Shown here: one piece after another, positions 7,519 to 64,000 of the stretch
Numbering within the stretch: the first letter of the stretch is position 1
Layout: every line of letters starts with the position of its first letter
Virus record (IMG/VR): IMGVR_UViG_3300030687_000017
DNA from: a virus
Reading direction: 5' to 3' (one strand)
Length of the DNA stretch: 64,000 nucleotides
Notes under the pieces: model-generated
The model's database searches: none
Seen by the model: only the letters and a program-made list of their open reading frames with translations
What the model was told of the DNA's origin: nothing
Position numbers and translations under genes: made by a program

Positions 7519-8046
7519 ATGGCTAAACCTAAGCATTCTATAGCTCGTCTACGCGAAGTTCTTGACTATAAACCACGTAAAGGCATCTTTGTATGGAAAA
7601 TTCATACAAAGTGTCAAGGTAGATTTATAAACCCTGGTGATCGGGCAGGCAGCACTCCAACTGGTAGATCTGATGACAGAATAGGCATAGGATTTGAGGG
7701 TAGGCAGTATCGCGCTCACATCTTAGCTTACGCTTTTATGAAAGGTCGTTGGCCGCCTAAAGGAAAGCTCGTTGACCATCACGATGGCAACGGCGCTAAC
7801 AATAAGCGGACAAATTTGCGCGAAGCAACGCGCACACAGAATCGCTGGAACACACGTCGACTTCGTAAGAGTAATAGTAGCGGTAAGGCCGGTGTTTCGT
7901 GGAATTCACACAACCAGAAGTGGCTGTCGCAAATTGTCGTTCATGGTAAATGCCATGAGAACAAGCTGTTCATAGATAAAGACAAAGCGATTGCGCATCG
8001 TCTAATGCTGGAGAAGAAGTACTTCGGCGAATACGCACCACAGTAA
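7519..8046 (+). CDS. HNH homing endonuclease with AP2 DNA-binding domain
   Basis: HNH motif VDHHDGNGANNKRTNLREAT..QN; AP2-like GKAGVSWNSHNQKWLSQIVVHGK; gene lies in a visibly AT-richer island between structural genes. Confidence 0.8.
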   Translation: MAKPKHSIARLREVLDYKPRKGIFVWKIHTKCQGRFINPGDRAGSTPTGRSDDRIGIGFEGRQYRAHILAYAFMKGRWPPKGKLVDHHDGNGANNKRTNLREATRTQNRWNTRRLRKSNSSGKAGVSWNSHNQKWLSQIVVHGKCHENKLFIDKDKAIAHRLMLEKKYFGEYAPQ

Positions 8047-9726: not shown

Positions 9727-9760
9727 GTCCTACGGGCATTTAGTGAGCTATAATAGCTGC

Positions 9761-10624
9761 ATGCCTGGTTTAGTGTATTTACTGGTTCACAGACCTACTC
9801 GTAGACCATATGTTGGTGCTACTGAGTCCACCTTAAAGAAGCGCCTTTTAAATCACATAAGAGAAGCTAAACGCGCGTTCAGAAAAATAGACGAAATGCA
9901 TTTACTGATGTCTGATGCTCTTTCTGATTGGGACTATGCCGTCCTAGAAACGGTTACCGATGGAGATAAACAGTATTTATGGAGTCGTGAGTCATTCTGG
10001 ATAGAACGACTCGGTAGTCTCGTACCACTAGGCTTTAACATCGCACAACGTGGTAACGTAGCTACTGGACGGCGTAATCCGTTCTTTGGCAAACATCATA
10101 AATCTACTTCGATTGAGTTAATAAGAACAGCCCGTATTGGCAGTAAACTAAGCGACGAGACGCGCAGAAGAATAAGTAAAAAAGGTCTTGGTAGAAAGCT
10201 TACGCCAGAACATTCTATTAATATTGGCAATGGTAGGCGCGGTAAGACCACCAAAGCACTAGGAGTACCAAAGGCATCTGAACACGCCAGAAAAATAGCT
10301 CTGGCAAGGATAGGCAGTAAACTTGTAGACGGTAAATTTGTAGAAGACAACGGAACTTACTTAGTAAGCAAGTCAACCTGTGTAGAGTGCAATAAAGTAA
10401 TAGTATTTGGTAAAAAGTGGCTACATTTAAACCCCAGCGATGGACACACAGCACGCCCCACAACGGTGAGTACTGTAAACTGGCGTAAACTGCGTGCTTC
10501 AGCGTTGGTAGAATGCAAGAATGTACTACGCTTTGAAAAAGCGCCATGGGTAAAAGTTTGCAGAAGCTTTAATACACCAAATAGAACCACTTGTTCAGAG
10601 TGTAAAGCCCGACTACGCGACTAA
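9761..10624 (+). CDS. GIY-YIG homing endonuclease with NUMOD3 DNA-binding repeats
   Basis: N-terminal GLVYLLVHRPTRRPYVG...KKRLLNH (GIY-YIG). Repeated basic motifs ARIGSKLSDETRRRISKKGLGRK and ALARIGSKL (NUMOD3-like). AT-rich island. ATG 9761 preferred over GTG 9743 because GAGCTATAAT (9746-9754) is then a -10 element. Confidence 0.8.
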   Translation: MPGLVYLLVHRPTRRPYVGATESTLKKRLLNHIREAKRAFRKIDEMHLLMSDALSDWDYAVLETVTDGDKQYLWSRESFWIERLGSLVPLGFNIAQRGNVATGRRNPFFGKHHKSTSIELIRTARIGSKLSDETRRRISKKGLGRKLTPEHSINIGNGRRGKTTKALGVPKASEHARKIALARIGSKLVDGKFVEDNGTYLVSKSTCVECNKVIVFGKKWLHLNPSDGHTARPTTVSTVNWRKLRASALVECKNVLRFEKAPWVKVCRSFNTPNRTTCSECKARLRD

Positions 10625-36519: not shown

Positions 36520-36578
36520 GACCCGGCTGGCTGGTACTCAGAACATCGAGTGCCAGCCAGCCGGGTCTTTTGTCGTTT
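36520..36578. terminator. bidirectional rho-independent terminator at the convergence point of the two modules
   Basis: 15-bp GC-rich stem GACCCGGCTGGCTGG/CCAGCCAGCCGGGTC with 18-nt loop, followed by TTTTGTCGTTT on + and preceded by an A/T-poor but stable context on -. Confidence 0.7.
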
Positions 36579-36861
36579 AAGACTTCTCATCCGGATAGTA
36601 CACTTCGATCAGCTTCTGTAGGAAGTGCTGTGCTTTCTTCAGGTCTTCCAGGCCGTTCTTACCGAGGAAGCGTAATGTGTACTTGGCCACCTGTCCAACC
36701 AAGTATGGCATCTTGGCATACAGATCCCAGTGCTGAATAATTTTATGACAGTGAGGACACACCGCCGACGCCTCTTGATAGTGACTACCTCCTACCTGCG
36801 TATCGTTAGCCTTGCTACTCGAAGACGTTGAATTCCGGACCTGCTTCACTACGGGTTTCAC
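36577..36861 (-). CDS. DUF3310-family phage protein
   Basis: Hallmark VGGSHYQ motif and KYTLRFLGK...DLKKAQHFL. Confidence 0.55.
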   Translation of the reverse strand: MKPVVKQVRNSTSSSSKANDTQVGGSHYQEASAVCPHCHKIIQHWDLYAKMPYLVGQVAKYTLRFLGKNGLEDLKKAQHFLQKLIEVYYPDEKS

Positions 36862-37423
36862 GATAGATCTCCTTTATAGCTTCGTACATGTTAGAGGCGC
36901 GCAGCGCGATGTCCAAGGGTACTTCCGTATTTACCGTGAGTGTTTCGATGTATGAACAGAATCGCTTCCAGATCAGCATGACGTTCTTGTTACCTAAGGC
37001 AAGCTCACGGCAGCAATACAGCAGACCATCAAAGCAGTCAGCCAGCTTAAGGATGAGCAACTCCTCCGGATCCAACCATTGCTCATAATCCAGGTCGTAC
37101 TTACGCAGCGTCTTCTGCTCCCAGTCATGGACTAGGTCAGACAGGCCCATCATGCGCTTGGCTGGAGCGCTGATGTCTGACGCTGCTTGCTCGGCCAGAT
37201 CATGCGTTAGCGCTGCCATAAGCAACATGGCGCTGGCTTGCGTACGACCCTCGGCATCTTTGCCGGCCAGTAAACTGCACCAAAGAGCAACGCCGAACGA
37301 GTGTGACGCATCGGTGTCTGTGCGTAAGCCTGGACGTGCGTGGTAGCGAATTACACTACCGCCCTCGTAAATGAATTGCAGGAGTTCTTTCACTTCCGCC
37401 TCCGTTCTTTCCACTCGTAGCAC
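36815..37423 (-). CDS. HD-domain phosphohydrolase (YfbR-like 5'-deoxynucleotidase type)
   Basis: RYHARPG...TDTDASHSFGVALW (H..D) and LTHDLAE (HD) motifs. Confidence 0.7.
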   Translation of the reverse strand: MLRVERTEAEVKELLQFIYEGGSVIRYHARPGLRTDTDASHSFGVALWCSLLAGKDAEGRTQASAMLLMAALTHDLAEQAASDISAPAKRMMGLSDLVHDWEQKTLRKYDLDYEQWLDPEELLILKLADCFDGLLYCCRELALGNKNVMLIWKRFCSYIETLTVNTEVPLDIALRASNMYEAIKEIYRETRSEAGPEFNVFE

Positions 37424-38481
37424 GCGCGCTTCCAGTCCGGCGCGTCAATGCCATCGAGGCAAGTGTTGCTGCTGTATTCATCCTTCCACTTTCGGAACAC
37501 CCAGAACAGGAACATCGGAATGGCTACCGCATGGAAGAATGGCGTCTTGCAGGCGGGGACGTTCGCTGCAAGCTGCGTAGCTTCTGGTAATACGTCTGAC
37601 GGGAACGTTGCCGGCGGTGGGGTGGCACGTATCACCTTCAGCGCCCACGGCATGAACAGCTTCAGGTCGTCGTCGAATCCTTCTGTGATAGAGGGTCCAA
37701 GAGGTTCCAACTGATCGAGCGTAACGCACTCGTATTCAATGGCGTTCAGCTTGTCAATACTGAACTTGTCGGTATACGTATGCAGATTGTTCGTGAACTG
37801 ATAGTAACTGCCCATCGGCACACCGATACGCATCGCCATGTACTCCAACAGGAAGCTGAAGTGGACCGCGTTCGCGCCGAATGCGCCCCACATACTGTCG
37901 TTGCTGCGGTTCATGACGGTCATGTTCAGCTTGCCGGCTCGTATGGCGAAGTAAGCGTGCGTGTTGCACGGAACGGCTTTACCACCGTTGCACGCAACGC
38001 CAAGATCATCGCTGTACTGTACGCCACTTTTCGCCTCCCATTGCGGGGCGCTTGGCGCAATATCAGCGTTCCACATCGCCAATACGCAGCGCCTGCTTCC
38101 CGGATTCGACTTGAGCTCCTCCACTATGGCATCGAGCTGGTCATAGCCGAAGAATTCTCGCCAGCGCCATCCGTAAGAGTCCCACATAGTCTTGCCATCA
38201 TCTGAAAACTGCGAGTATGAGGCATTAAAGAAAACCGGAAACTCCAGTTCGTTGCTCCCCGAGAAAAACCACAACGCCTCCATCACATGGAATACGTGGT
38301 TCGCATCGCGCGTTGGTGAATACAGCACTCGCTGCCTTGGGTCGGTATACTCGATACACACCGGCCCTGGCGCTACTAGCACTGGACCTACTCTGGAGTC
38401 CTCTTTGATTCCACTGTGTAACAAATGCTGTAGTCCAAGTGAAAGCGCCTCATTTACGTCTCTAGCTTTGTAACTGTACAT
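37390..38481 (-). CDS. thymidylate-synthase-fold enzyme with ~90-aa C-terminal extension (candidate dUMP hydroxymethylase, or divergent ThyA)
   Basis: Translation aligns by eye to E. coli ThyA: DQLDAIVEELKSNPGSRRCVLAMWN vs [25 protein letters not shown]; catalytic PC(N)TH vs PCHAF; NRSNDSMWGAFGANAVHFSFL vs [20 protein letters not shown] (Asn at the uracil-specificity position). ATG 38481 with AAGGAA RBS preferred over GTG 38487. Confidence 0.7.
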   Translation of the reverse strand: MYSYKARDVNEALSLGLQHLLHSGIKEDSRVGPVLVAPGPVCIEYTDPRQRVLYSPTRDANHVFHVMEALWFFSGSNELEFPVFFNASYSQFSDDGKTMWDSYGWRWREFFGYDQLDAIVEELKSNPGSRRCVLAMWNADIAPSAPQWEAKSGVQYSDDLGVACNGGKAVPCNTHAYFAIRAGKLNMTVMNRSNDSMWGAFGANAVHFSFLLEYMAMRIGVPMGSYYQFTNNLHTYTDKFSIDKLNAIEYECVTLDQLEPLGPSITEGFDDDLKLFMPWALKVIRATPPPATFPSDVLPEATQLAANVPACKTPFFHAVAIPMFLFWVFRKWKDEYSSNTCLDGIDAPDWKRACYEWKERRRK

Positions 38482-38506
38482 CTTCACTTCCTTTCGCTGC
38501 TATGGG

Positions 38507-39379
38507 TTAATTATAAGCTTCGCCGCTGGCGCGGAACTTCTGCTTCGCTCTGCCGCCGTTGTACTTCACCTTGCAGTATTTGCTGAATTCACACAGACAG
38601 TTCTGTAGATTCTGCGCATCCAACACTGGGCATTTCAACTTTGGCTGAGCTACCTTCATCAAATCCAGCAGCGTAGCATGCCATTCCTCTTCGTTCCAGC
38701 GCGCAGTTGGTTCTCTTCCCACGAGCCAGTTTAACCCTCTACGACTTCCTGGCCCTGACATTGCGAACGTCATCCAGTCTTCAGCCTTCTTCATAGAAGG
38801 CAGGTGCTTAATATCCGCCACGACCTGCGCACTCATGAACCCACCTCCGAAGCCGTGATGTAACATGAGCGCTTCTTGCAACGTACTAAGCTCACACCCG
38901 GTACGCACCAAGTTACCTAGCAGCTTACGGCTGTTCCACAACGGCCCAAGCACCTGGTCGGCCAAGTACGACGCCTTGGACTGTCCTTTGGTAGCACCGA
39001 CGGCGTTTATCATGTATGCCCCTGTGAACGTCGCCATGCCGTCCTTCTTGCGCGCCTCCATCAGCTTCACAAACCGCTTCGGATTCCATTTTGATGGATA
39101 ACCGAGCGCTTCCAGGCTCGCCGGCAAGTTCACCAACCGTGCCAGCGCCATTGCGAAGACTACCGTGTCGTAGTCCTCCGCGTGCGGCTGTAACCAGTTT
39201 TCGTGTATACACTTAGTGACCCTGTCGTCTTCGCGACGTACGTTGGTAAAGCGGTATTCCAACAGGATAGGATCCTTCGTCCACGGAGCAGGCTTCCCAG
39301 CCAATCGCTTCTGATGTATGGACCAACGCTCGTTCACGAAGTACACGAACTCTTCAAGCCTTGGGAACTGCTTGCTCAT
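38507..39379 (-). CDS. hypothetical protein (290 aa) in the nucleotide-modification cluster
   Basis: Clean ORF; no motif I can name; overlaps the nucleotidyltransferase gene end by 26 nt. Confidence 0.5.
   Translation of the reverse strand: MSKQFPRLEEFVYFVNERWSIHQKRLAGKPAPWTKDPILLEYRFTNVRREDDRVTKCIHENWLQPHAEDYDTVVFAMALARLVNLPASLEALGYPSKWNPKRFVKLMEARKKDGMATFTGAYMINAVGATKGQSKASYLADQVLGPLWNSRKLLGNLVRTGCELSTLQEALMLHHGFGGGFMSAQVVADIKHLPSMKKAEDWMTFAMSGPGSRRGLNWLVGREPTARWNEEEWHATLLDLMKVAQPKLKCPVLDAQNLQNCLCEFSKYCKVKYNGGRAKQKFRASGEAYN
38510..38518 (-). promoter_or_regulatory. -10-like element GCTTATAAT upstream of the TS-fold gene
   Basis: Reverse complement of attataagc; 28 nt upstream of ATG 38481. 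Confidence 0.3.
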
Positions 39380-40073
39380 ACGCCTCCAGTTCAGCCGGTG
39401 TGCCTACGTGGTTGAATTCATCGGCTGCGATCACCATGGCCGTGGTCAACTGCAAATTGTTGTGGCACGGTGCCAGATAGTACTCACCGTTAGTCATCGT
39501 ACTGAGAATCACCATCTCGTAGATGGCGCGCTTGGCAAGCTCCCACGACTGGAATGCATGAACGCCGCAAGAAGCAATACCGCTTATGCGCTGCTTCTCC
39601 ACCACCTGCGTCACTAAGTGATCCTTCATGATAACGAAACTGTAGCGCTCGCTGTCATCCTTAGGACGGAAGCACAGCATAGAAGACTGCACGCCAGACT
39701 TGAAGCAAGCCTCACTAAACTCAGAGAACTTAGCAAGCACACCACTCTTGAAGATGGTGTCACAGTCCATGACCAGCACCGGATCGGTATCGCGAATCAC
39801 ACCTGACGCCGCCAACAAAGACATGGCCGCACCCTTCTGCACGAACCGAATGGGCACGCGGATCGGATGCATGTTCTTCGGCGTTTGCTTGTGAAGCTCA
39901 CTGTACAAATCCACCAAGCACACAACGACAGGCGTCTTGATGATTTCAGACGCCTGGACCAGCGCATGCTGTATCATCGTGCGACCGCGCGCTGGGAGCA
40001 GCGGTTTAGGCGTCATTACCCCGTTACTGACAAATCGTTCACCGCGTCCTGCCGCCAGAATAACTACTTGCAT
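39354..40073 (-). CDS. nucleotidyltransferase (sugar-1-P / phospho-alcohol NTP-transferase fold, RmlA/IspD/LicC-like)
   Basis: N-terminal ILAAGRGERF....PKPLLPARGRTMIQH signature (GxGxR...PKxL...G). Confidence 0.65.
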   Translation of the reverse strand: MQVVILAAGRGERFVSNGVMTPKPLLPARGRTMIQHALVQASEIIKTPVVVCLVDLYSELHKQTPKNMHPIRVPIRFVQKGAAMSLLAASGVIRDTDPVLVMDCDTIFKSGVLAKFSEFSEACFKSGVQSSMLCFRPKDDSERYSFVIMKDHLVTQVVEKQRISGIASCGVHAFQSWELAKRAIYEMVILSTMTNGEYYLAPCHNNLQLTTAMVIAADEFNHVGTPAELEAYEQAVPKA

Positions 40074-40801
40074 GCATCCACTCTCATTTCCGTGCGAAGT
40101 TCTTCCGCCAAATTACGCAGGCCCGATACGACGTCAATGGCCCATACACGCGCCTGCGGCTGCACACCATACAGCCGAATGATGTGCGTCAGCATGTAGT
40201 AGATACAGAGGTCCAGGTTCAATTTTTGCTCGACCAAGAACTTACGTATCATGTAACGTTCCGACTCCAGGCAAGGGCGACCGTAGTGGAAGTACGACTG
40301 CAGCAGCTTGCCGCCGTCAAGCTCGGCCTCTTGTGGCAATGGACGCGTACTAGGGTCTAGCCAATAACCGTCGCGTACGTAGTTCTCCAGGGTGGGATCA
40401 CCATGTACGACCTGTGCTCCTTTGCTTTGCGTACTACCAATTCGTTCGTACCACGTCGTCAGCGCCGACCGGATAATAGGCGGAAAGCCTTCTGTGCGAG
40501 TGAACGGCTCTACTTGGACTACGTGGTGGCGACGGCGGCCCTCATAATCGTAGACATGCGCCACCGGCAGGTCCCATAAAGCAGCCAACCGGGCCAGCGC
40601 CAACGGCAGGTCCAGTACCGGCGATGGTTCGCCCATTACCGGCATGACGTAGCCGCCAGTCGTTATACCTAGCACCGGCACAAATACGTCCGGATAGGCG
40701 CGCATCTTAGCGCCTTGCGTCGGCACACCATGGCCACTCTTATAGATACACGGCTCTAGGGCTGCTCCGCTGTTGCGCTGAATCTTGTGGTGAATGATCA
40801 C
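40064..40801 (-). CDS. small-molecule kinase of the aminoglycoside-phosphotransferase/choline-kinase fold
   Basis: Brenner motif VVHGDPTLENYV (HGDxxxxN) and a downstream D-rich segment; GTG start overlapping the upstream stop (GTGA). Confidence 0.55.
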   Translation of the reverse strand: MIIHHKIQRNSGAALEPCIYKSGHGVPTQGAKMRAYPDVFVPVLGITTGGYVMPVMGEPSPVLDLPLALARLAALWDLPVAHVYDYEGRRRHHVVQVEPFTRTEGFPPIIRSALTTWYERIGSTQSKGAQVVHGDPTLENYVRDGYWLDPSTRPLPQEAELDGGKLLQSYFHYGRPCLESERYMIRKFLVEQKLNLDLCIYYMLTHIIRLYGVQPQARVWAIDVVSGLRNLAEELRTEMRVDACK

Positions 40802-40965
40802 GCCGTGCCTCCCATCATCTTCCGTACGACGACGCGGTAATCCTCCGTGCCGCTCTTGTGCGCGTCCTCCACCAGTTTGCGATTACCACGCCGCACCCAC
40901 CGGTTGAAGCAGCCAAGGTTACAGAACCGATTCGCACACTTCTTCTTGCAATTTTCGCACTTCAT
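40798..40965 (-). CDS. 55-aa Cys-rich (zinc-ribbon-like) peptide, translationally coupled between glycosyltransferase and kinase
   Basis: Own translation: MKCENCKKKCANRFCNLGCFNRW...; ATGA overlap with GT stop and TGA/GTG overlap with the kinase start. Below the 60-aa cutoff of the ORF track. Confidence 0.3.
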   Translation of the reverse strand: MKCENCKKKCANRFCNLGCFNRWVRRGNRKLVEDAHKSGTEDYRVVVRKMMGGTA

Positions 40966-41885
40966 GCCGTCACCGCTTTCTTTGCTGCCTTCCGTACGCT
41001 TGGAACCTTGGGCTGAGCCAGAGAGGAGAGGTAAGCCTTCTTCCAGGCTACCACGACCTCCTTACGCACAGCCGTCGTGGTGTACGCGCGGTCCACCACC
41101 TTCACGAAGCCGGGGTGTAGCTTGGCCAACTCGAAGCACTGGGCGTCGCTGTACTCCATACTGCGCTCGCCGCTGCACCCTCCCGCCGCGCCGAATGTGC
41201 CGTACTCGTTGTTGAGTAGCTCGACGTAGTTGTGGCACTCATGGCCTTTACGCAACATGGACAACACCACGTGGAAGTCCTCGCGCAGACCTATGGCGTC
41301 GAAGCGAATCTTCTCTTTGAGATAGAGCTCTCGGTTGACACCGAAAGCATACATCATCCTTGCGTTCTTCTCCCACGCCGCTTTCTTCTTGTCAGAGTGA
41401 CGCCGATGCGCGATGCCGATCATACCGAGGTCGTGCTCTTTACCAGCGTAGGAATCCATCTCCTGGAATAGCTTCAAGAGGACCTTGTCCTTAGGATAGC
41501 GACGCATCATCAGCGAGGTTCCAGCCGGTGCGTCCGGAGCTACGGCGTACGCCTTGCGATGCTCCTCCCACACGCGCCACTTAGCCGGGCAGCGCTCGAA
41601 GAACGCCAGGTCGTCGTCCATCATAAATAGAAACTTGCCGGCTACGTTCTTCATAATCCAGTGACGCTTCGTAGCGATGGATGTAGTGCCCTTGGCTGTA
41701 AGCACTTGGTTAGCCGGGTACAGCTTCTTCAGCGCCTTGGCTTCGTCAGGCAACGAAGCCACGAGGATGACCTCGGCCTGGAGCGCAGTCGGCAGCGCCT
41801 GGAGCGTTATCTGCTTGTTAACACGACCGTGCGTGGGGATGATGAGTGTTAGGTTTTTCAGGATCGTTCTCCTCTTACGTGGCAA
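40962..41885 (-). CDS. putative GT-A fold glycosyltransferase
   Basis: N-terminal LTLIIPTHGR (GT2-like start) and acidic FLFMMDDDLAFF (DxD-type) motif. Confidence 0.45.
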   Translation of the reverse strand: MPRKRRTILKNLTLIIPTHGRVNKQITLQALPTALQAEVILVASLPDEAKALKKLYPANQVLTAKGTTSIATKRHWIMKNVAGKFLFMMDDDLAFFERCPAKWRVWEEHRKAYAVAPDAPAGTSLMMRRYPKDKVLLKLFQEMDSYAGKEHDLGMIGIAHRRHSDKKKAAWEKNARMMYAFGVNRELYLKEKIRFDAIGLREDFHVVLSMLRKGHECHNYVELLNNEYGTFGAAGGCSGERSMEYSDAQCFELAKLHPGFVKVVDRAYTTTAVRKEVVVAWKKAYLSSLAQPKVPSVRKAAKKAVTA

Positions 41886-41916
41886 AGGCGTCTAAGACAC
41901 CCGGGGAAATACAAAG

Positions 41917-41940
41917 ACGCCCGATGTTCTGGGCGTCTCA
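41917..41940 (-). terminator. hairpin AGACGCCC-N8-GGGCGTCT between the 64-aa gene and the glycosyltransferase gene (possible attenuator/terminator)
   Basis: 8-bp perfect inverted repeat; T-rich TTGTATTT follows on the - strand. Confidence 0.3.
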
Positions 41941-42232: not shown

Positions 42233-43792
42233 CTACTCGATGACGGACAGGTAGCCCTGCTTCACCAGCCACGCCACTTCCAGCTTGCGACCGCTGGGAT
42301 TCAGCTTGGACTTGTCCAGCTTGGCCTGAGCCTCGCTCACGGTCTTGGAGCCGATGATGGCCTCAACTTGACCGTAGCAGAAGCTGCCTTCGCGGGGCAA
42401 CGACTCCGACTTCAACGTTACTAACGCCTTGATCTTGCGATCGGCGGCTGCGGCGCGCGGTGCCTTGTCGGCCTTCTTGGTTACGGTTGCCTTGACCTTG
42501 GTCGTGACAGCGTTCTTCGCGGTCTTCTTGGCTGTTCCAGCGGGAGGTGCGAATTTCTGCTTCTTGGTTTCAACGGTTGCAGTGGTCATGATGTTCTCCT
42601 TGCAGTGATCTAACACCGCTGTAAGGTGGCGTTCAGCCACGGACGAAACTACAACTCCAGCCGTAATGGGGTGTAGTAACTGATTTACGTCTCTCACTAG
42701 ATCGCTACTTGTGATCTGACGCAGTGTTCTCAGAACTTCTGTCGGTACTACTCCGGCAGCAACGCGACTCCCGTTATTATACACGCAAATCGCGCCCTGC
42801 GAATTGGGTTTTTCCAACTGTAGCAAAACGATACCATTATTGGGATCTTCCAGCAGGAATATCTCGTCCAGGTTGACGTAGATATCAGCATCCGACTTCG
42901 GCTGCGCCATTGGCATGTTCGCCGTTTCGCGCTCCGCACGCTTGACTCGTGCCGCCAGTTCCAGCTTGAAATCGGCGCTGTCCTTGGCTTCTTGCTTCTT
43001 GTTCATCTTCTTGGGCGCGTCCAGGATCGGCTTGCCATCGAATACGACGCGGGTGTGTACCGTCTTCCGAAGCTCGTCAGCGATTACAGCCTTCTCTACC
43101 TTCGCTACCGCGCGCTCCGTCTTGCTGGCACTCTTCGCGAGCTCCATGCACTTCGCGCTGAATGCCGACTCCATACCGGCCACGGACGACTTCGCGATGC
43201 CGAGCGCGACGTAGAACTCGGTCAGCACTTTGTTGACGCCGCTCTCCTTGACCAGTACCTTGTCAGTCTTACGTAGCAGCTTCAGAAGCTGCACGCGCGC
43301 CTTGTAGTTGGCGTCGCCAGCCAGATCGCTGATGCGATACTTGCCAGCCGTCAGCTTACGTAGCGCGTCCAGCGCGGCCACGACGTTGCTAGGTAACGGA
43401 GCCGGTCCCTTAGCGTCGTACATGGTCTTTACGAATTGCTGAGCGTTCTTGCCTTCAGCCGTGGAGCCGTCCGCAAACTTCACCTGCCACGCGGTGTTGA
43501 TGCTGGACGAACTGCCAGCGTGCGTGAATAGAAGCGCCGCACCGTCTTCGCGTGTATAGCCATGAGCGGTATTGTTATCTACCTCCTCAGTGCGGCTGTA
43601 TACGAATCCGGCCTTGACGAACGCCTGAGTCAGCGGCGTTACGGGCGCGGTGGGAGCGAGCGACTTATTGTGGATGTCGTGCGTGGCTACGACTGTTTCG
43701 CCCTTAGCCGTCTTGATCAACTTCTTGCCAACAGCCTTGACAGCTTTCGCGCTCGGTGCTGCCTTGATGTTCTTCAGGATTGACTTTGCCAT
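42233..43792 (-). CDS. hypothetical Lys/Ala-rich protein (about 519 aa), possibly nucleic-acid-binding
   Basis: ATG 43792 (MAKSILKNIK) overlapping the upstream TAA preferred over GTG 43804; long basic low-complexity C-terminal region. Confidence 0.45.
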   Translation of the reverse strand: MAKSILKNIKAAPSAKAVKAVGKKLIKTAKGETVVATHDIHNKSLAPTAPVTPLTQAFVKAGFVYSRTEEVDNNTAHGYTREDGAALLFTHAGSSSSINTAWQVKFADGSTAEGKNAQQFVKTMYDAKGPAPLPSNVVAALDALRKLTAGKYRISDLAGDANYKARVQLLKLLRKTDKVLVKESGVNKVLTEFYVALGIAKSSVAGMESAFSAKCMELAKSASKTERAVAKVEKAVIADELRKTVHTRVVFDGKPILDAPKKMNKKQEAKDSADFKLELAARVKRAERETANMPMAQPKSDADIYVNLDEIFLLEDPNNGIVLLQLEKPNSQGAICVYNNGSRVAAGVVPTEVLRTLRQITSSDLVRDVNQLLHPITAGVVVSSVAERHLTAVLDHCKENIMTTATVETKKQKFAPPAGTAKKTAKNAVTTKVKATVTKKADKAPRAAAADRKIKALVTLKSESLPREGSFCYGQVEAIIGSKTVSEAQAKLDKSKLNPSGRKLEVAWLVKQGYLSVIE

Positions 43793-43793
43793 G

Positions 43794-43949
43794 TTAGCGT
43801 CCACCCTTCGCGATGGCGGCTTCGGTGAACTGGATCATGCGGGCGAGGTTCTCAGCCTTCTTGAACTCTTCCTGCGCGATGCGGCTGATGAGTGCTGACT
43901 TGAGAAGTTCGAGGGAGTTCTTGCGCTTCTGTTGCATGGACTGTGGCAT
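43794..43949 (-). CDS. 51-aa hypothetical peptide
   Basis: AAGGAGAAAC RBS then ATG 43949; MPQSMQQKRKNSLELLK... Confidence 0.3.
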   Translation of the reverse strand: MPQSMQQKRKNSLELLKSALISRIAQEEFKKAENLARMIQFTEAAIAKGGR

Positions 43950-54172: not shown

Positions 54173-54604
54173 CTACAGCGCCCCCGTAATGGCCACTTGG
54201 CCCTGGTACTTGCCGCGATAAGGCTCGGTGGCGCTGGTAAGCTTCGCGAAGATGACGTGGGCGAATCGCTGTCCAACAGGCACGTAACCCGGCGCGCCGA
54301 ACTTGGCTATCTCCAGGGTGATACTGCCCTGGAAGCCAGCGTCTATCACAGTCGGTGGCATGATGAAGCCCATACGCGCCCAAGTGGACCGTATTTGCAC
54401 GAACGCCATAAGGTCGTCAGGCATGGTTATAATCTCGCGCGTACGACCTAACGTGAATCCACCTGCGGCCAACAAGTCGCTCTCCACCTGACTCACAATC
54501 ATGTCAATGCCGTTTTGCTGAAACTGATCGTCAGCCAATGCTGGCTCGAACCGTAGCGCACCCCGCTCTACGTACTTCATAAGATCTTGCCGCGATAGAA
54601 TCAA
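54173..54604 (-). CDS. dCTP deaminase / dUTPase-family protein
   Basis: TTG start 6 nt after GGAG gives (M)ILSRQDLMKYVERGALRFEP..., like Dcd MRLCDRDI...; C-terminal VPVGQRFAHVIF...GKYQGQ. The longer ORF from 54931 is Arg-rich and overlaps the next gene, so it is rejected. Confidence 0.5.
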   Translation of the reverse strand: MILSRQDLMKYVERGALRFEPALADDQFQQNGIDMIVSQVESDLLAAGGFTLGRTREIITMPDDLMAFVQIRSTWARMGFIMPPTVIDAGFQGSITLEIAKFGAPGYVPVGQRFAHVIFAKLTSATEPYRGKYQGQVAITGAL

Positions 54605-55924: not shown

Positions 55925-56836
55925 TCACTTCGCCGCCAGCATATGCAACTGCGCGTTGGCCATCGTCGCCTGGAAGTTCTGCAAGCCCTCCGGTCCAGAG
56001 GGCATAAAGACCATGGTGGTGTTGTCAGAGCCGCCGACCTTCTGCATCATGTCGGTCCAGTTGGTGAACAGCAGCAGGAACGTAGCGTCGTTATCCGACA
56101 GGTCGGTACTGCCCTTTATCTTGTCGATCGAGTCAGCCCACCCGTCAGCGATGGCCTTACGCTCGTTAGCCACGCCCAAACCTTCTTGGCGCTTGACCTC
56201 GGCATCAGCCTCAGCCTGCCGCACCTTGAGTATATACTCCGCGTCACCTTGTGCCTTATTAGCCACGGCCAGCCGGGTCTGCTCGTTGATACTGTTCATG
56301 GCCTTGACCACTCCGGCGTCCGGTTGGATGTCAGTGATCATTACTTTGGTGATTTCGACACCGAACTTGGACATCTGTAGTTCAAGTTCTGCCGACGCCT
56401 TGTCCGATACCTGCTGCTGCGACGTGAAGAGTGTGTCCAGGTCCATGTCCGGAATGTGTCCCAACAGGATGTTGGACAGGTAGGAGCTGATCTGCTCGTT
56501 GTTGGTTAGCTTGTAATGATAGTCCTGGATGGCTTGATCCGAACTACCCACCTGCCACTGGCAGGACACCGGCAGCGTGACGAACACGTTGTCCTTGGTC
56601 TTCGTCTCAATGGTGTCGTCTAGCTGGTACGTGGCCAGCCTAACTAACTCGACAGAGTCCACGAATGGCCGCTTGAAGTTGAGCCCTGGCCGTGCGATGT
56701 GACTGAACTTGCCGAAGCGCGCTACTACAGCCGCTTCCTGCGTAGGCACCGTGTAGAACGACCCGAAGAATATGCTCAGGACTATGATGGCTAGAACGCC
56801 CAGTCCCACGTACATTGCGATTGTTGCGAAATCCAT
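55925..56836 (-). CDS. SPFH/band-7 (stomatin/HflC-like) membrane protein
   Basis: ATG 56836 after AAGGAG; N-terminal TM (MDFATIAMYVGLGVLAIIVLSIFF) then VVARFGKF...PGLNFKRPFVDSV, and a coiled-coil region rich in A/E/K/Q. Confidence 0.6.
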   Translation of the reverse strand: MDFATIAMYVGLGVLAIIVLSIFFGSFYTVPTQEAAVVARFGKFSHIARPGLNFKRPFVDSVELVRLATYQLDDTIETKTKDNVFVTLPVSCQWQVGSSDQAIQDYHYKLTNNEQISSYLSNILLGHIPDMDLDTLFTSQQQVSDKASAELELQMSKFGVEITKVMITDIQPDAGVVKAMNSINEQTRLAVANKAQGDAEYILKVRQAEADAEVKRQEGLGVANERKAIADGWADSIDKIKGSTDLSDNDATFLLLFTNWTDMMQKVGGSDNTTMVFMPSGPEGLQNFQATMANAQLHMLAAK

Positions 56837-56849
56837 AATGCTCCTTGCA

Positions 56850-57074
56850 CTACATTTTCTTGGTGTGTTTTGGTATCGTGAACGTTGCATCGGTAGTAGT
56901 AAGATCGCTACCTGACGACGTAATGCTAAGTACGGTACCATCTTCAAATTCAAACGTGTAGGTACCGGGTCCATCGCAGTTGACCTGCGCCTTTGTGATT
57001 CGCTGACCGACCAGATGATTCAACTGAATTCGTTCGTCTCGACAGTCTTCGCAGAAATGTTCTCTCATTAGCAA
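56850..57074 (-). CDS. hypothetical small protein (74 aa, CEDC..C pairs)
   Basis: ORF. Confidence 0.35.
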   Translation of the reverse strand: MLMREHFCEDCRDERIQLNHLVGQRITKAQVNCDGPGTYTFEFEDGTVLSITSSGSDLTTTDATFTIPKHTKKM

Positions 57075-62976: not shown

Positions 62977-63321
62977 TCAGCCATCACGCGTGCGTCCCTC
63001 TCCCTTGCAATCCTTGCACTCCGTTATCTTGCCCTTGAACATACGTGTACCGACCACGCCCGAGCCTGCGCACTTGCCACACTGCCCTGACAGCAGAAAC
63101 TGCGACGCCGCCCACTGTGCACGCAGCGCGTCAGTCTTGATGGCTGAGTACGCTTCGGTGATGCGGTGCCACTGGAAGTTCAACTTCTCCTGCGACGCCT
63201 CTGGCATTCCACGCCGCGCATCCGGATGGCAGTACCGCGCCAGCCCATGGTATAATTTACGAATGATCTCGTCAGAGTCGTTTGGCTTCGCCAACAGTAT
63301 GCAGTAGGGCGTCACAACCAC
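62977..63321 (-). CDS. J-domain (DnaJ-like) protein with CxxCxGxG zinc-finger
   Basis: YCILLAKPNDSDEIIRKLYHGLARYCHPDARRG (HPD tripeptide) and CGKCAGSG...CKDCKGEG. Confidence 0.6.
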   Translation of the reverse strand: MVVTPYCILLAKPNDSDEIIRKLYHGLARYCHPDARRGMPEASQEKLNFQWHRITEAYSAIKTDALRAQWAASQFLLSGQCGKCAGSGVVGTRMFKGKITECKDCKGEGRTRDG

Positions 63322-63567: not shown

Positions 63568-64000
63568 TCACAGCAAACCCAGCCTCTCTAGTGTAACAAT
63601 CGTCGCTTCCGCCGACTTGTGATGAACGAACACTCCGCCAGCGTCAGTCCAAAATGGTGCGTACTTCACCCGATCATCCACGAGTATGTCTCCAGGCGCG
63701 GTCATGTGATGGCACTTGTCACGCGATAGACAGACGATGGTCGGTACGCCTGGAAAATGCTTGGCCGTCCAACGAATCTTTTGATCCACGGCCCATAGTC
63801 CGCTTGCTGGTCTTCCAGTCAGAATGATCGGATTCAGATGCTTGACGCTATCGTACAGCTCCATGGCGTCCGGCATGAGCGGCAGCTTGAAGTAGTAATC
63901 TTCATGGTCCTGCAGATCTTGCCACAGTCGTTTACTGCCGTGCTCTTCCTCCACCAGTGTCGGATGTCGTCCGTAGTGGTCGATGAAGTATTGATCGAAG
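63568..64000 (-). CDS. HAD-like nucleotidase (5'(3')-deoxyribonucleotidase-like), 5'-partial
   Basis: Frame stays open to the window edge; NPIILTGRP...KHFPGVP..IVCLSRDK...ILVDDRV resembles the NT5C family C-terminal half; the catalytic DxD N-terminus would lie outside the window. Confidence 0.3.
   Translation of the reverse strand, partial: FDQYFIDHYGRHPTLVEEEHGSKRLWQDLQDHEDYYFKLPLMPDAMELYDSVKHLNPIILTGRPASGLWAVDQKIRWTAKHFPGVPTIVCLSRDKCHHMTAPGDILVDDRVKYAPFWTDAGGVFVHHKSAEATIVTLERLGLL

Follow-up and report, generated by a model that had tools for sequence, protein, structure and literature searches.

A predicted glycosylation branch of thymidine hypermodification encoded by an uncultured phage

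We analysed a 64,000-nucleotide stretch of DNA (hereafter the window) from the IMG/VR virus record IMGVR_UViG_3300030687_000017. This report concerns a module of eight tightly packed, co-oriented open reading frames (ORFs) on its minus strand, at positions 36577-41885. Our preferred reading, which we hold as probable though by no means secure, is that the module serves a thymidine hypermodification based on 5-hydroxymethyl-deoxyuridine (5-hmdU), in which a glycosylation cassette takes the place of the P-loop DNA kinase and the amino-acid:DNA transferase (AADT). The ORFs, in module order, are:

40962..41885, minus strand: TAGT-family GT-A glycosyltransferase (GT), 307 amino acids (aa), Pfam TAGT PF20691 and phrog_842
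40798..40965, minus strand: Cys-rich Zn-ribbon-like ORF, 55 aa, with 4-nt overlaps with both the GT and the kinase gene
40064..40801, minus strand: short, divergent kinase of the APH/choline-kinase fold, 245 aa, a predicted anomeric kinase for a sugar or sugar phosphate
39354..40073, minus strand: sugar-1-phosphate-type nucleotidyltransferase (NTase), 239 aa, 10-nt overlap with the kinase gene, a predicted maker of a nucleoside-diphosphate (NDP) sugar
38507..39379, minus strand: clade-1 aGPT-Pplase / HMUDK_hel, 290 aa, PF18723, 26-nt overlap with the NTase gene
37390..38487, minus strand: predicted dUMP 5-hydroxymethyltransferase of the thymidylate synthase (TS) fold, 365 aa, 19-nt gap from the clade-1 gene
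36815..37423, minus strand: HD-domain YfbR-like 5'-deoxynucleotidase, 202 aa, PF12917 (5.8e-09) and HD_3 (5e-06)
36577..36861, minus strand: DUF3310 protein, 94 aa, PF11753 (2.1e-07) and phrog_236 "nucleotide kinase" (5e-17)

Neighbouring ORFs of the module overlap by 4 to 47 nt or are parted by the 19-nt gap. The ORFs listed in the original prediction, made from the sequence alone, exist at the coordinates given there, and all lie on the minus strand. Its left boundary has to be moved, as the HD gene (37423..36815) and the DUF3310 gene (36861..36577) continue the module.

The TS-fold protein gives profile matches to Thymidylat_synt (5.6e-18) and phrog_5131 (3e-94). With the M6-type dUMP hydroxymethylase AN14_17, it shares 43% identity and a long C-terminal extension. 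Positions are given in E. coli ThyA numbering, and the diagnostic criteria are those of PMC13326640, where Asn177 marks dUMP rather than dCMP as the substrate and Asn169 (D169N) marks a 5-hydroxy-dCMP synthase. The catalytic Cys146 is retained, as are Asp169 and Asn177. The water-excluding Leu143 is replaced by Ala, Trp80 is lost, and His147 is replaced by Asn. A 5-hydroxy-dCMP synthase is ruled out by the retained Asp169 and a dCMP hydroxymethylase by the retained Asn177. From this active-site signature and the homology, the protein is read as a dUMP 5-hydroxymethyltransferase, which agrees with the original suggestion of a dUMP hydroxymethylase; by the same signature and homology, it corresponds to the TS-fold enzyme of the canonical 5-PmdU pathway. 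Asp169 and Asn177 are present in all of its relatives (70/70), and position 143 is Asp in 62 of them and Ala in 7. The Ala143 variant also occurs in two of the loci compared here (numbered with the prefix L), L013 and L014, both beside a P-loop 5-hmdU DNA kinase (5-HMUDK) and an AADT. Because this DNA kinase and transferase adjoin, the L013 and L014 enzymes must make 5-hmdU.

The GT matches Pfam TAGT PF20691 with an E-value of 1.1e-14 (55.3 bits at a cut-off of 27.5) and phrog_842 with 2.6e-43, and it is 36.8% identical to ORF237 of Ralstonia phage RSL1. Its motifs DDD, ED, and GGC are invariant or nearly so among 20 homologues, which upholds the earlier description of a GT-A enzyme with a DxD-like motif. 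GTs from phage TET clusters glycosylate 5-hydroxymethylcytosine (5hmC) or its sugar in DNA (PMC8256090). The window GT is predicted, from its sequence, to transfer a sugar to the 5-CH2OH of 5-hmdU in DNA. The TET/JBP partner of TAGT enzymes is missing here, with no TET_JBP match among the approximately 60 window ORFs scanned.

The window belongs to an uncultured phage genome of approximately 100 kb, which two contigs 99.9-100% identical to the window extend by 9.3 kb and 8.9 kb. Identical proteins turn up on many contigs, and the 100-kb records with them include ENA ERZ27249347 k141_597004 and JGI 3300028773 Ga0302234_10000045. We searched the window and these flanks (18 kb; 82 kb in total) for the parts of the known thymidine cassettes. 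For the P-loop 5-HMUDK (PF18748), there is no Walker-A kinase in the window and no tblastn match with three queries in the window plus flanks. For the clade-2 aGPT-Pplase/AADT (PF18724), no cluster protein has a Pfam ADDT match, and three tblastn queries found nothing in the 82 kb. Because neither the P-loop 5-HMUDK nor the clade-2 transferase nor a TET partner was found, we assign the cluster to a glycosylating branch of 5-hmdU hypermodification.

The order TAGT, kinase, NTase, clade-1, TS, HD recurs on independent metagenomic contigs (L005-L008, L012, L015, and L025) with proteins 41-73% identical. Hence, the arrangement is not due to chance. The sister phage L009 (4699-8004; also L017) has the same backbone. 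In the same slot, it carries a GATase_6-ADDT fusion, a P-loop 5-HMUDK, a 136-aa ORF, and a GNAT acetyltransferase, followed by the clade-1, TS, HD block as in the window. The L009 cassette predicts a different, amino-acid-derived thymidine modification.

We then relate these two cassettes to each other in a sample of 80 IMG/VR loci with clade-1 homologues, 61 of which remained after 90% de-duplication. Co-occurrence is defined as a tblastn match within 10 kb, on metagenomic contigs of uneven length. A TS lies within this distance in 50 of the 61 non-redundant loci, a P-loop kinase in 23, and a TAGT-like GT in 11. P-loop kinase and GT occur together in none of the 61 (Fisher one-sided p=0.003). 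The kinase/NTase pair is present in three clusters of the 61-locus set, each time with a GT, and 9 of the 13 GT-containing IMG/VR loci (8/11 non-redundant) have clade-1 and GT and no kinase. The clade-1 gene and the GT gene are immediate neighbours in many loci; clade-1 is also found with the P-loop/AADT cassette or with none. The TAGT family, the genomic embedding, and the exclusivity with the DNA-kinase cassette speak for DNA hypermodification rather than a surface-glycan cluster, as had been proposed.

The kinase has no match in Pfam, PHROGs, NCBIfam, PDB sequences, or phage genomes (50,697). Its identity rests on the predicted fold and on profile-profile comparison, the only informative approaches. 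The fold is that of APH enzymes with intact catalytic residues: the Brenner motif HxDxxxxN, the Mg-binding Asp, and the ATP-binding Lys are present. Pfam APH (PF01636) does not match the window kinase itself, and 15 of 79 remote relatives match it weakly. The family comprises 16 close homologues, all in the same gene context, and 279 representatives among 1.84 billion proteins. The core HGDxxxxN..DP..DxxKLLxSxxGY aligns with the kinase domain of RB69 gp52 AfhE (hhalign probability 82%, E 1e-5, 57 columns), which is the D-arabinose-5-P kinase of the UDP-arabinose pathway (PMC13326640). A motif similar to DxxKLLxSxxGY is also found in RSL1 ORF236.

The NTase matches Pfam NTP_transf_3 (6.8e-14) and NTP_transferase (2.7e-10). 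Sub-threshold NCBIfam matches are to the GlmU N-terminal, MurU, AglF, and RmlA models; the PDB matches are 4evw and 4y7t MurU. There are also weak IspD/MobA-like matches and distant homologues in cyanophages. The protein is 30% identical to RSL1 ORF235 (8e-23) and lies in a phage-only clade of approximately 25 proteins, whose nearest cellular proteins are 28-32% identical and carry generic names. Its likeness to AfhE is generic (21% identity, E 1e-4), and neither kinase nor NTase has a BLAST-level match in Straboviridae. An attempt to name the sugar via NTase homologues failed, as the close homologues are unnamed phage proteins. The two genes are adjacent and overlapping, always occur together, and are never found without a GT (window, L005-8, L012, L015, L025, L097, and RSL1). 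They look like a donor-activating pair, in line with the role first suggested for them.

In L097 (6421-9863), a more distant module of TAGT, APH-kinase, a 163-aa ORF, and NTase lies beside PolA and a ParB_N-like gene; neither TS nor clade-1 is encoded within 8 kb of the module. This may be the same sugar module joined to a ParB-dependent T-dioxygenase system.

The 290-aa protein had been left unassigned in the original prediction. It is in fact a clade-1 aGPT-Pplase by its sequence, with a clear match to PF18723 HMUDK_hel (E 2e-41, 142.7 bits at a cut-off of 25) over residues 8-273 of 290. All of its 933 homologues at E<=1e-10 carry PF18723, its best isolate matches are annotated as clade-1 aGPT-Pplase, and M6 gp55 is its counterpart by gene order. 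Its helix-hairpin-helix (HhH) fold is of the DNA-glycosylase type and akin to that of the clade-2 enzyme PUGT, whose structure is solved and which is the sole Foldseek match above noise, although a weak one; a search against PDB sequences gave no match. Cys263-Glu264..Lys267 is invariant across 40 clade-1 homologues. In clade 2, the active-site residues are E243/T244/C247 (PMC11472151, PMC13458397). An hhalign comparison of the clades that is not significant (E 0.24), and which we take as a lead only, places C263 on the catalytic C247 and Q259/N260 on the metal ligands E243/T244. The clade-1 protein would thus have kept the catalytic Cys of clade 2.

In the literature, only clade 2 is credited with transferase activity, and M6 gp55 is not needed for glycine transfer in vitro (PMC8989533). 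A clade-1 paralogue occurs in the classical thymidine-modifying phages, and in SP10 gp186 the clade-1 domain is fused to a P-loop 5-HMUDK (PMC5889632). In 20 of the 80 IMG/VR loci (including L018, L020, L021, L029, and L034), TS and clade-1 are accompanied within 10 kb by neither P-loop kinase nor GT. Because these loci hold both genes without either cassette, the clade-1 protein may act on 5-hmdU without help from any other tailoring enzyme.

Further genes of nucleotide metabolism and replication are found outside the cluster:

54173..54604, minus strand: protein of the dCTP deaminase/dUTPase fold (DCD-like), PF22769 DCD (1.9e-20) and dUTPase (5e-06), accessory
63568..64000, minus strand: NT5C-like HAD phosphatase, PF06941 (1e-06, at 63568-63954), cut by the window end, 156 aa in the flanking contig L092
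52193..54172, minus strand: family A DNA polymerase (PolA), PF00476 (1.5e-37)

The DCD-like and NT5C-like genes had been named beforehand at 54173-54604 and 63568-63954, and both are confirmed by their Pfam matches. The NT5C-like protein is 38-42% identical to the product of a gene located between TAGT and kinase in L008. TS is followed by HD in the window, in all close relatives, and in M6-like phages alike, and a DUF3310 gene accompanies TS in most related loci. The DCD-like protein probably supplies dUMP or excludes dTTP/dUTP, the HD/YfbR-like protein is predicted to remodel the dTMP/dNMP pool, and the DUF3310 protein is possibly a 5-hmdUMP kinase. The DCD-like, HD, and NT5C-like genes thus fit the remodelling of the dUMP/5-hmdUTP pool, as had been supposed.

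Comparison with known systems places the cluster between several of them. Like the window, phages of the M6/YuA type (5-NedU; PMC5889632, PMC8989533) have a clade-1 protein (M6 gp55/AN14_14), a dUMP hydroxymethylase, and an HD protein, with PolA nearby, and, as those phages do, the window phage is predicted to combine a pre-replicative route to 5-hmdU with post-replicative tailoring on DNA. The window cluster has the front end of the thymidine pathways known from M6, ViI, and PhiW-14. The cassettes differ: M6 has a clade-2 transferase, a pyridoxal phosphate-dependent decarboxylase, a radical-SAM isomerase, and the P-loop 5-HMUDK, whereas the window has the TAGT GT, the APH-fold kinase, and the NTase. 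The claim that the cluster departs from published thymidine pathways therefore holds for the cassette but not for the clade-1/dUMP hydroxymethylase/HD part, which is shared.

A cultured parallel, RSL1, is a 231-kb jumbo myovirus. Its ORF230-238 include, co-oriented and adjacent as in the window, a TS (46% identical), clade-1 (32%), NTase (30%), and TAGT GT (37%), and ORF236 holds an APH-type kinase domain. Unlike the window, RSL1 has two further GTs (three in total), a sulfotransferase, and an APS kinase, and its kinase is fused in a 477-aa NTase/APH-type protein. ORF238 was considered as a hidden 5-HMUDK and ruled out, as it is a genuine APS-kinase match. The sequence of the RSL1 cluster predicts a larger, sulfated glycan or oligosaccharide on 5-hmdU. 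In Brevibacterium phage LuckyBarnes (gp38-gp41), a TS-fold protein of 517 aa, extended well beyond the usual C-terminus, precedes two TAGT-like GTs and a gene resembling clade-1 (28% identity); the TS/GT/clade-1 trio is thus present in an actinobacteriophage as well. Hence, the combination is not unique to the window phage: TS, clade-1, and a TAGT-like GT occur together in RSL1, in LuckyBarnes, and in 11/61 non-redundant IMG/VR loci.

The arabinosyl-5-hydroxycytosine system of RB69/DLP3/HY126 (PMC13326640) resembles the window in that a phage NTase and an APH-fold kinase make an NDP-sugar for DNA GTs, that a TS-fold enzyme makes the acceptor base before replication, and that the kinase core motif appears to be shared (hhalign probability 82%). 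It differs in the base, which is C (Asp177) and hydroxylated (Asn169), whereas the window residues point to dUMP hydroxymethylation. AfhE is a fused protein and the GTs are GT-B-like, whereas the window has split activities and a GT-A enzyme of the TAGT family. For the AfhF module, no SIS (arabinose-5-P) isomerase was detected among the scanned window ORFs, and the HAD phosphatases are unrelated: the NT5C-like HAD protein (at 63.6 kb here; in-cluster in L008) has no similarity to the RB69 gp51 phosphatase. An NDP-sugar module within a phage, which the original prediction counted among the signs of an undescribed modification, has a precedent in this system, as AfhE (a fused NTase/APH-kinase) and the AfhF phosphatase make UDP-arabinose in RB69-like phages (PMC13326640).

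In T-even phages, including those with the T6-type TAGT (PMC13390438), a TS-fold nucleotide hydroxymethylase is likewise followed by a DNA GT, and the TAGT family is shared. The pyrimidine is C there as against U/T in the window. The T-even donor comes from the host UDP-glucose pool, and the window donor probably does not, as an activation pair is encoded by the phage itself. Phage TET/5mYOX-GT clusters (PMC8256090; bioRxiv 10.1101/2023.12.21.572611; PMC13229309) also use a GT-A enzyme on a 5-hydroxymethylpyrimidine in DNA, and metagenome surveys have recorded APH phosphotransferase and ThyS genes as GT-A neighbours (bioRxiv 10.1101/2023.12.21.572611). In TET clusters, a dioxygenase makes the hydroxymethyl group after replication, whereas in the window a TS-fold enzyme is predicted to do so before replication. 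Base J of kinetoplastids (JBP1/2 and JGT) belongs to the predicted product class, an O-glycosylated 5-hydroxymethyluracil. The likeness is one of predicted product only, as base J is made in a eukaryote by a dioxygenase and a different GT that uses UDP-glucose. SP-15/YerA41/Carin-5 (PMC12686479, PMC9023294) have a sugar-bearing thymidine replacement with NDP-sugar and GT genes near the polymerase. They differ from the window by a (di)hydroxypentyl linker with phosphate and by other gene sets, and no clade-1/TAGT pairing has been described for them.

The families, folds, signatures, synteny, cassette swap, exclusivity, and pairing reported here come from sequence analysis, and from them we infer every catalytic activity and the product. 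In the proposed pathway, the DCD-like enzyme would feed dUMP, the HD/YfbR-like and NT5C-like nucleotidases would drain dTMP, and the DUF3310 protein may phosphorylate 5-hmdUMP. The TS-fold enzyme, by its active-site signature and homology, would convert dUMP to 5-hmdUMP. The phage PolA would have to accept 5-hmdUTP and would put 5-hmdU in place of T. Kinase and NTase would convert a sugar or sugar phosphate to sugar-1-P and then to the NDP-sugar, as suggested by their fold, their obligate pairing, and the similarity to the AfhE kinase core. By family membership and context, the TAGT GT-A enzyme would place this sugar, within duplex DNA, onto the oxygen of the 5-hmdU hydroxymethyl group. This would yield 5-(glycosyloxymethyl)-dU, which resembles base J and would protect the genome against nucleases. 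The clade-1 protein would bind DNA and flip the modified base, and it could target the base for the GT or run a second reaction on 5-hmdU.

An undescribed modification had been proposed at the outset, and it stays a prediction. In a more specific form, which we put forward tentatively and do not regard as the expected outcome, the T replacement would be 5-hydroxymethyl-dU carrying an O-linked sugar for which no NDP form is available from the host. Its donor would be made by an unrecognised short APH-like kinase family and a phage-only NTase clade. The clade-1 protein would in addition act on DNA as an enzyme that depends on Cys but not on metal and works in the amino-acid branch as well as in the sugar branch; it might select which 5-hmdU gets tailored or return the untailored fraction to thymine at the polymer level.

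Several points weigh against the glycosylation of 5-hmdU as we propose it. The 82 kb covered are part of a genome of approximately 100 kb, and a P-loop kinase could lie in the other 18 kb or so. Ala143 of the TS-fold protein is without the acidic side chain found in most hydroxymethylases. Kinase and NTase belong to phage-only clades without a named cellular orthologue, so that the sugar is not nameable and a non-sugar alcohol is possible. The conserved clade-1 protein gets no defined function in the model. In the literature that we searched, there is no nucleoside chemistry for the window phage or for phages with this cassette (RSL1, LuckyBarnes). Finally, in T6-like phages the second glucose is attributed to the TAGT enzyme, which would act on glucosyl-5hmC and not on the bare base (PMC13390438); by analogy, the window GT could be a second-step enzyme on an already attached sugar.

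This last point leads to a reading in which the clade-1 aGPT-Pplase is the primary transferase that puts the first group on 5-hmdU, and the TAGT enzyme merely extends it. The direct adjacency of clade-1 and GT genes in many loci would fit, and the invariant Cys suggests catalysis. We nevertheless consider such a role decidedly unlikely, since clade-1 also accompanies the P-loop/AADT cassette or no cassette and is thus not sugar-specific, M6 gp55 is dispensable for group transfer in vitro (PMC8989533), and phage TET-cluster GTs also add the first sugar to 5hmC (PMC8256090). The APH-fold kinase, on the other hand, might be a non-orthologous replacement of the P-loop kinase. It would phosphorylate 5-hmdU in DNA, clade-1 would displace the phosphate with a nucleophile (perhaps sugar-derived or NDP-linked and made by the NTase), and the GT would elaborate the product. 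The window kinase does fill the slot that the P-loop kinase has in the sister phage L009, and no P-loop kinase was found in the 82 kb searched. The fusion in SP10 gp186 (PMC5889632) ties clade-1 functionally to a kinase, and the clade-1 Cys aligns, in the weak comparison given above, with the catalytic Cys of clade 2. This reading is unlikely all the same: the 9/13 GT loci (8/11 non-redundant) manage with clade-1 and GT and no kinase, and the kinase is never seen without the NTase. APH-fold enzymes act on small molecules, and among specific matches the kinase domain of AfhE, which acts on a sugar phosphate, comes closest. Also, Q259/N260 at the positions of the clade-2 metal ligands E243/T244 argue, in a weak alignment, against phosphate-assisted chemistry.

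If kinase and NTase instead activated a non-sugar alcohol in the style of LicA/LicC (CDP-choline) or of CDP-ribitol and CDP-glycerol synthesis, a phospho-alcohol would be attached, and the modification would be phosphodiester-linked as in SP-15-type DNA. The weak IspD/MobA-like matches of the NTase and the phosphate in the T modifications of SP-15, YerA41, and Carin-5 (PMC12686479) are compatible with this. We regard it as very unlikely, because the transferase, a GT-A enzyme with DxD, belongs to the DNA-glycosylating TAGT family and is no phosphotransferase of the LicD or TagF type, the best NTase matches are sugar-1-P enzymes (GlmU, MurU, AglF, and RmlA), and the kinase core resembles a sugar-phosphate kinase. 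Finally, the cluster might not modify DNA at all, with an ordinary thymidylate synthase and with GT, kinase, and NTase altering a host or virion glycan. For cyanophages, NDP-sugar and GT genes are presumed to serve the remodelling of surface polysaccharides (PMC7824862), and distant homologues of the NTase occur in these phages. We take such a role to be most unlikely: the GT is in the DNA-specific TAGT family, and the trio is embedded between the clade-1 aGPT-Pplase and replication genes, in a slot where it and the DNA-kinase cassette exclude each other. The TS has neither Leu143 nor Trp80 and falls among the dUMP hydroxymethylases, and nucleotidases and a DCD-like enzyme, as T-replacing phages typically have, are encoded in the same genome. 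Direct glycosylation of 5-hmdU thus remains our preferred reading.

The Zn-ribbon ORF has no homologue in any related locus. The kinase of a 69-kb relative (P0015) has an N-terminal CxxC..CxxC extension at a position that matches this ORF, which suggests, from sequence, a small zinc module linked to the kinase. Because it is unconserved in relatives, the ORF is the weakest element of the cluster, and its membership in the module is uncertain. A terminator scan found two hairpins that bracket the cluster:

36520-36567, strand./+: hairpin with a 20-bp stem and a T-run, at the downstream end of the minus-strand module
41914-41939, minus strand: hairpin with a 9-bp stem, just upstream of the GT start codon

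The strong hairpin at 36520-36567 closes the module. Both hairpins have the loop AGAACATCG in common, a 9-mer with six copies in the window against 0.53 expected; the other four copies lie outside hairpins. The paired hairpins may be a phage-specific terminator or regulatory stem-loop.

Directly upstream of the cassette, a 523-aa protein is encoded at 42233-43804 (minus strand). It has no family match, and counterparts of 555-678 aa are found at the same position in all relatives, whatever their cassette. Two of the three homing endonucleases named earlier are confirmed, an HNH_3 gene at 7519-8046 and a GIY-YIG/NUMOD3 gene at 9743-10624, both within the structural module; in the relative L008, a GIY-YIG gene separates the clade-1 and TS genes. 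Among the genes of the replication/early region are also those for an SPFH/Band-7 and a DnaJ-like protein (window 55925-56974 and 62977-63321). Past the right window end (L092 383-844 and 4591-6879), a Fic-domain protein and a 762-aa DUF8224 protein follow. A megablast search of the cluster against the 50,697 phage genomes gave one chance-level match of 96 bp only, and thus no cultured relative that is close at the DNA level.

Thymidine hypermodification has so far been understood by one logic, a P-loop DNA kinase and then Cys-dependent transfer of an amino acid or polyamine. In the cluster and its relatives, we see signs of a second branch off the 5-hmdU front end that excludes the first: the base would be glycosylated directly, in some phages with a donor of their own making. 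The relatives in question are RSL1, LuckyBarnes, and approximately one-fifth of the sampled clade-1-containing viral loci. The partnership of the clade-1 protein with either cassette or with neither offers a concrete handle on its function. If the reading is true, phages make base-J-like DNA, and new DNA GTs and sugar-activating enzymes would be available for labelling 5-hydroxymethyluracil. One would then expect such phages to withstand cleavage by restriction enzymes and CRISPR, and their sequencing or engineering to be difficult.

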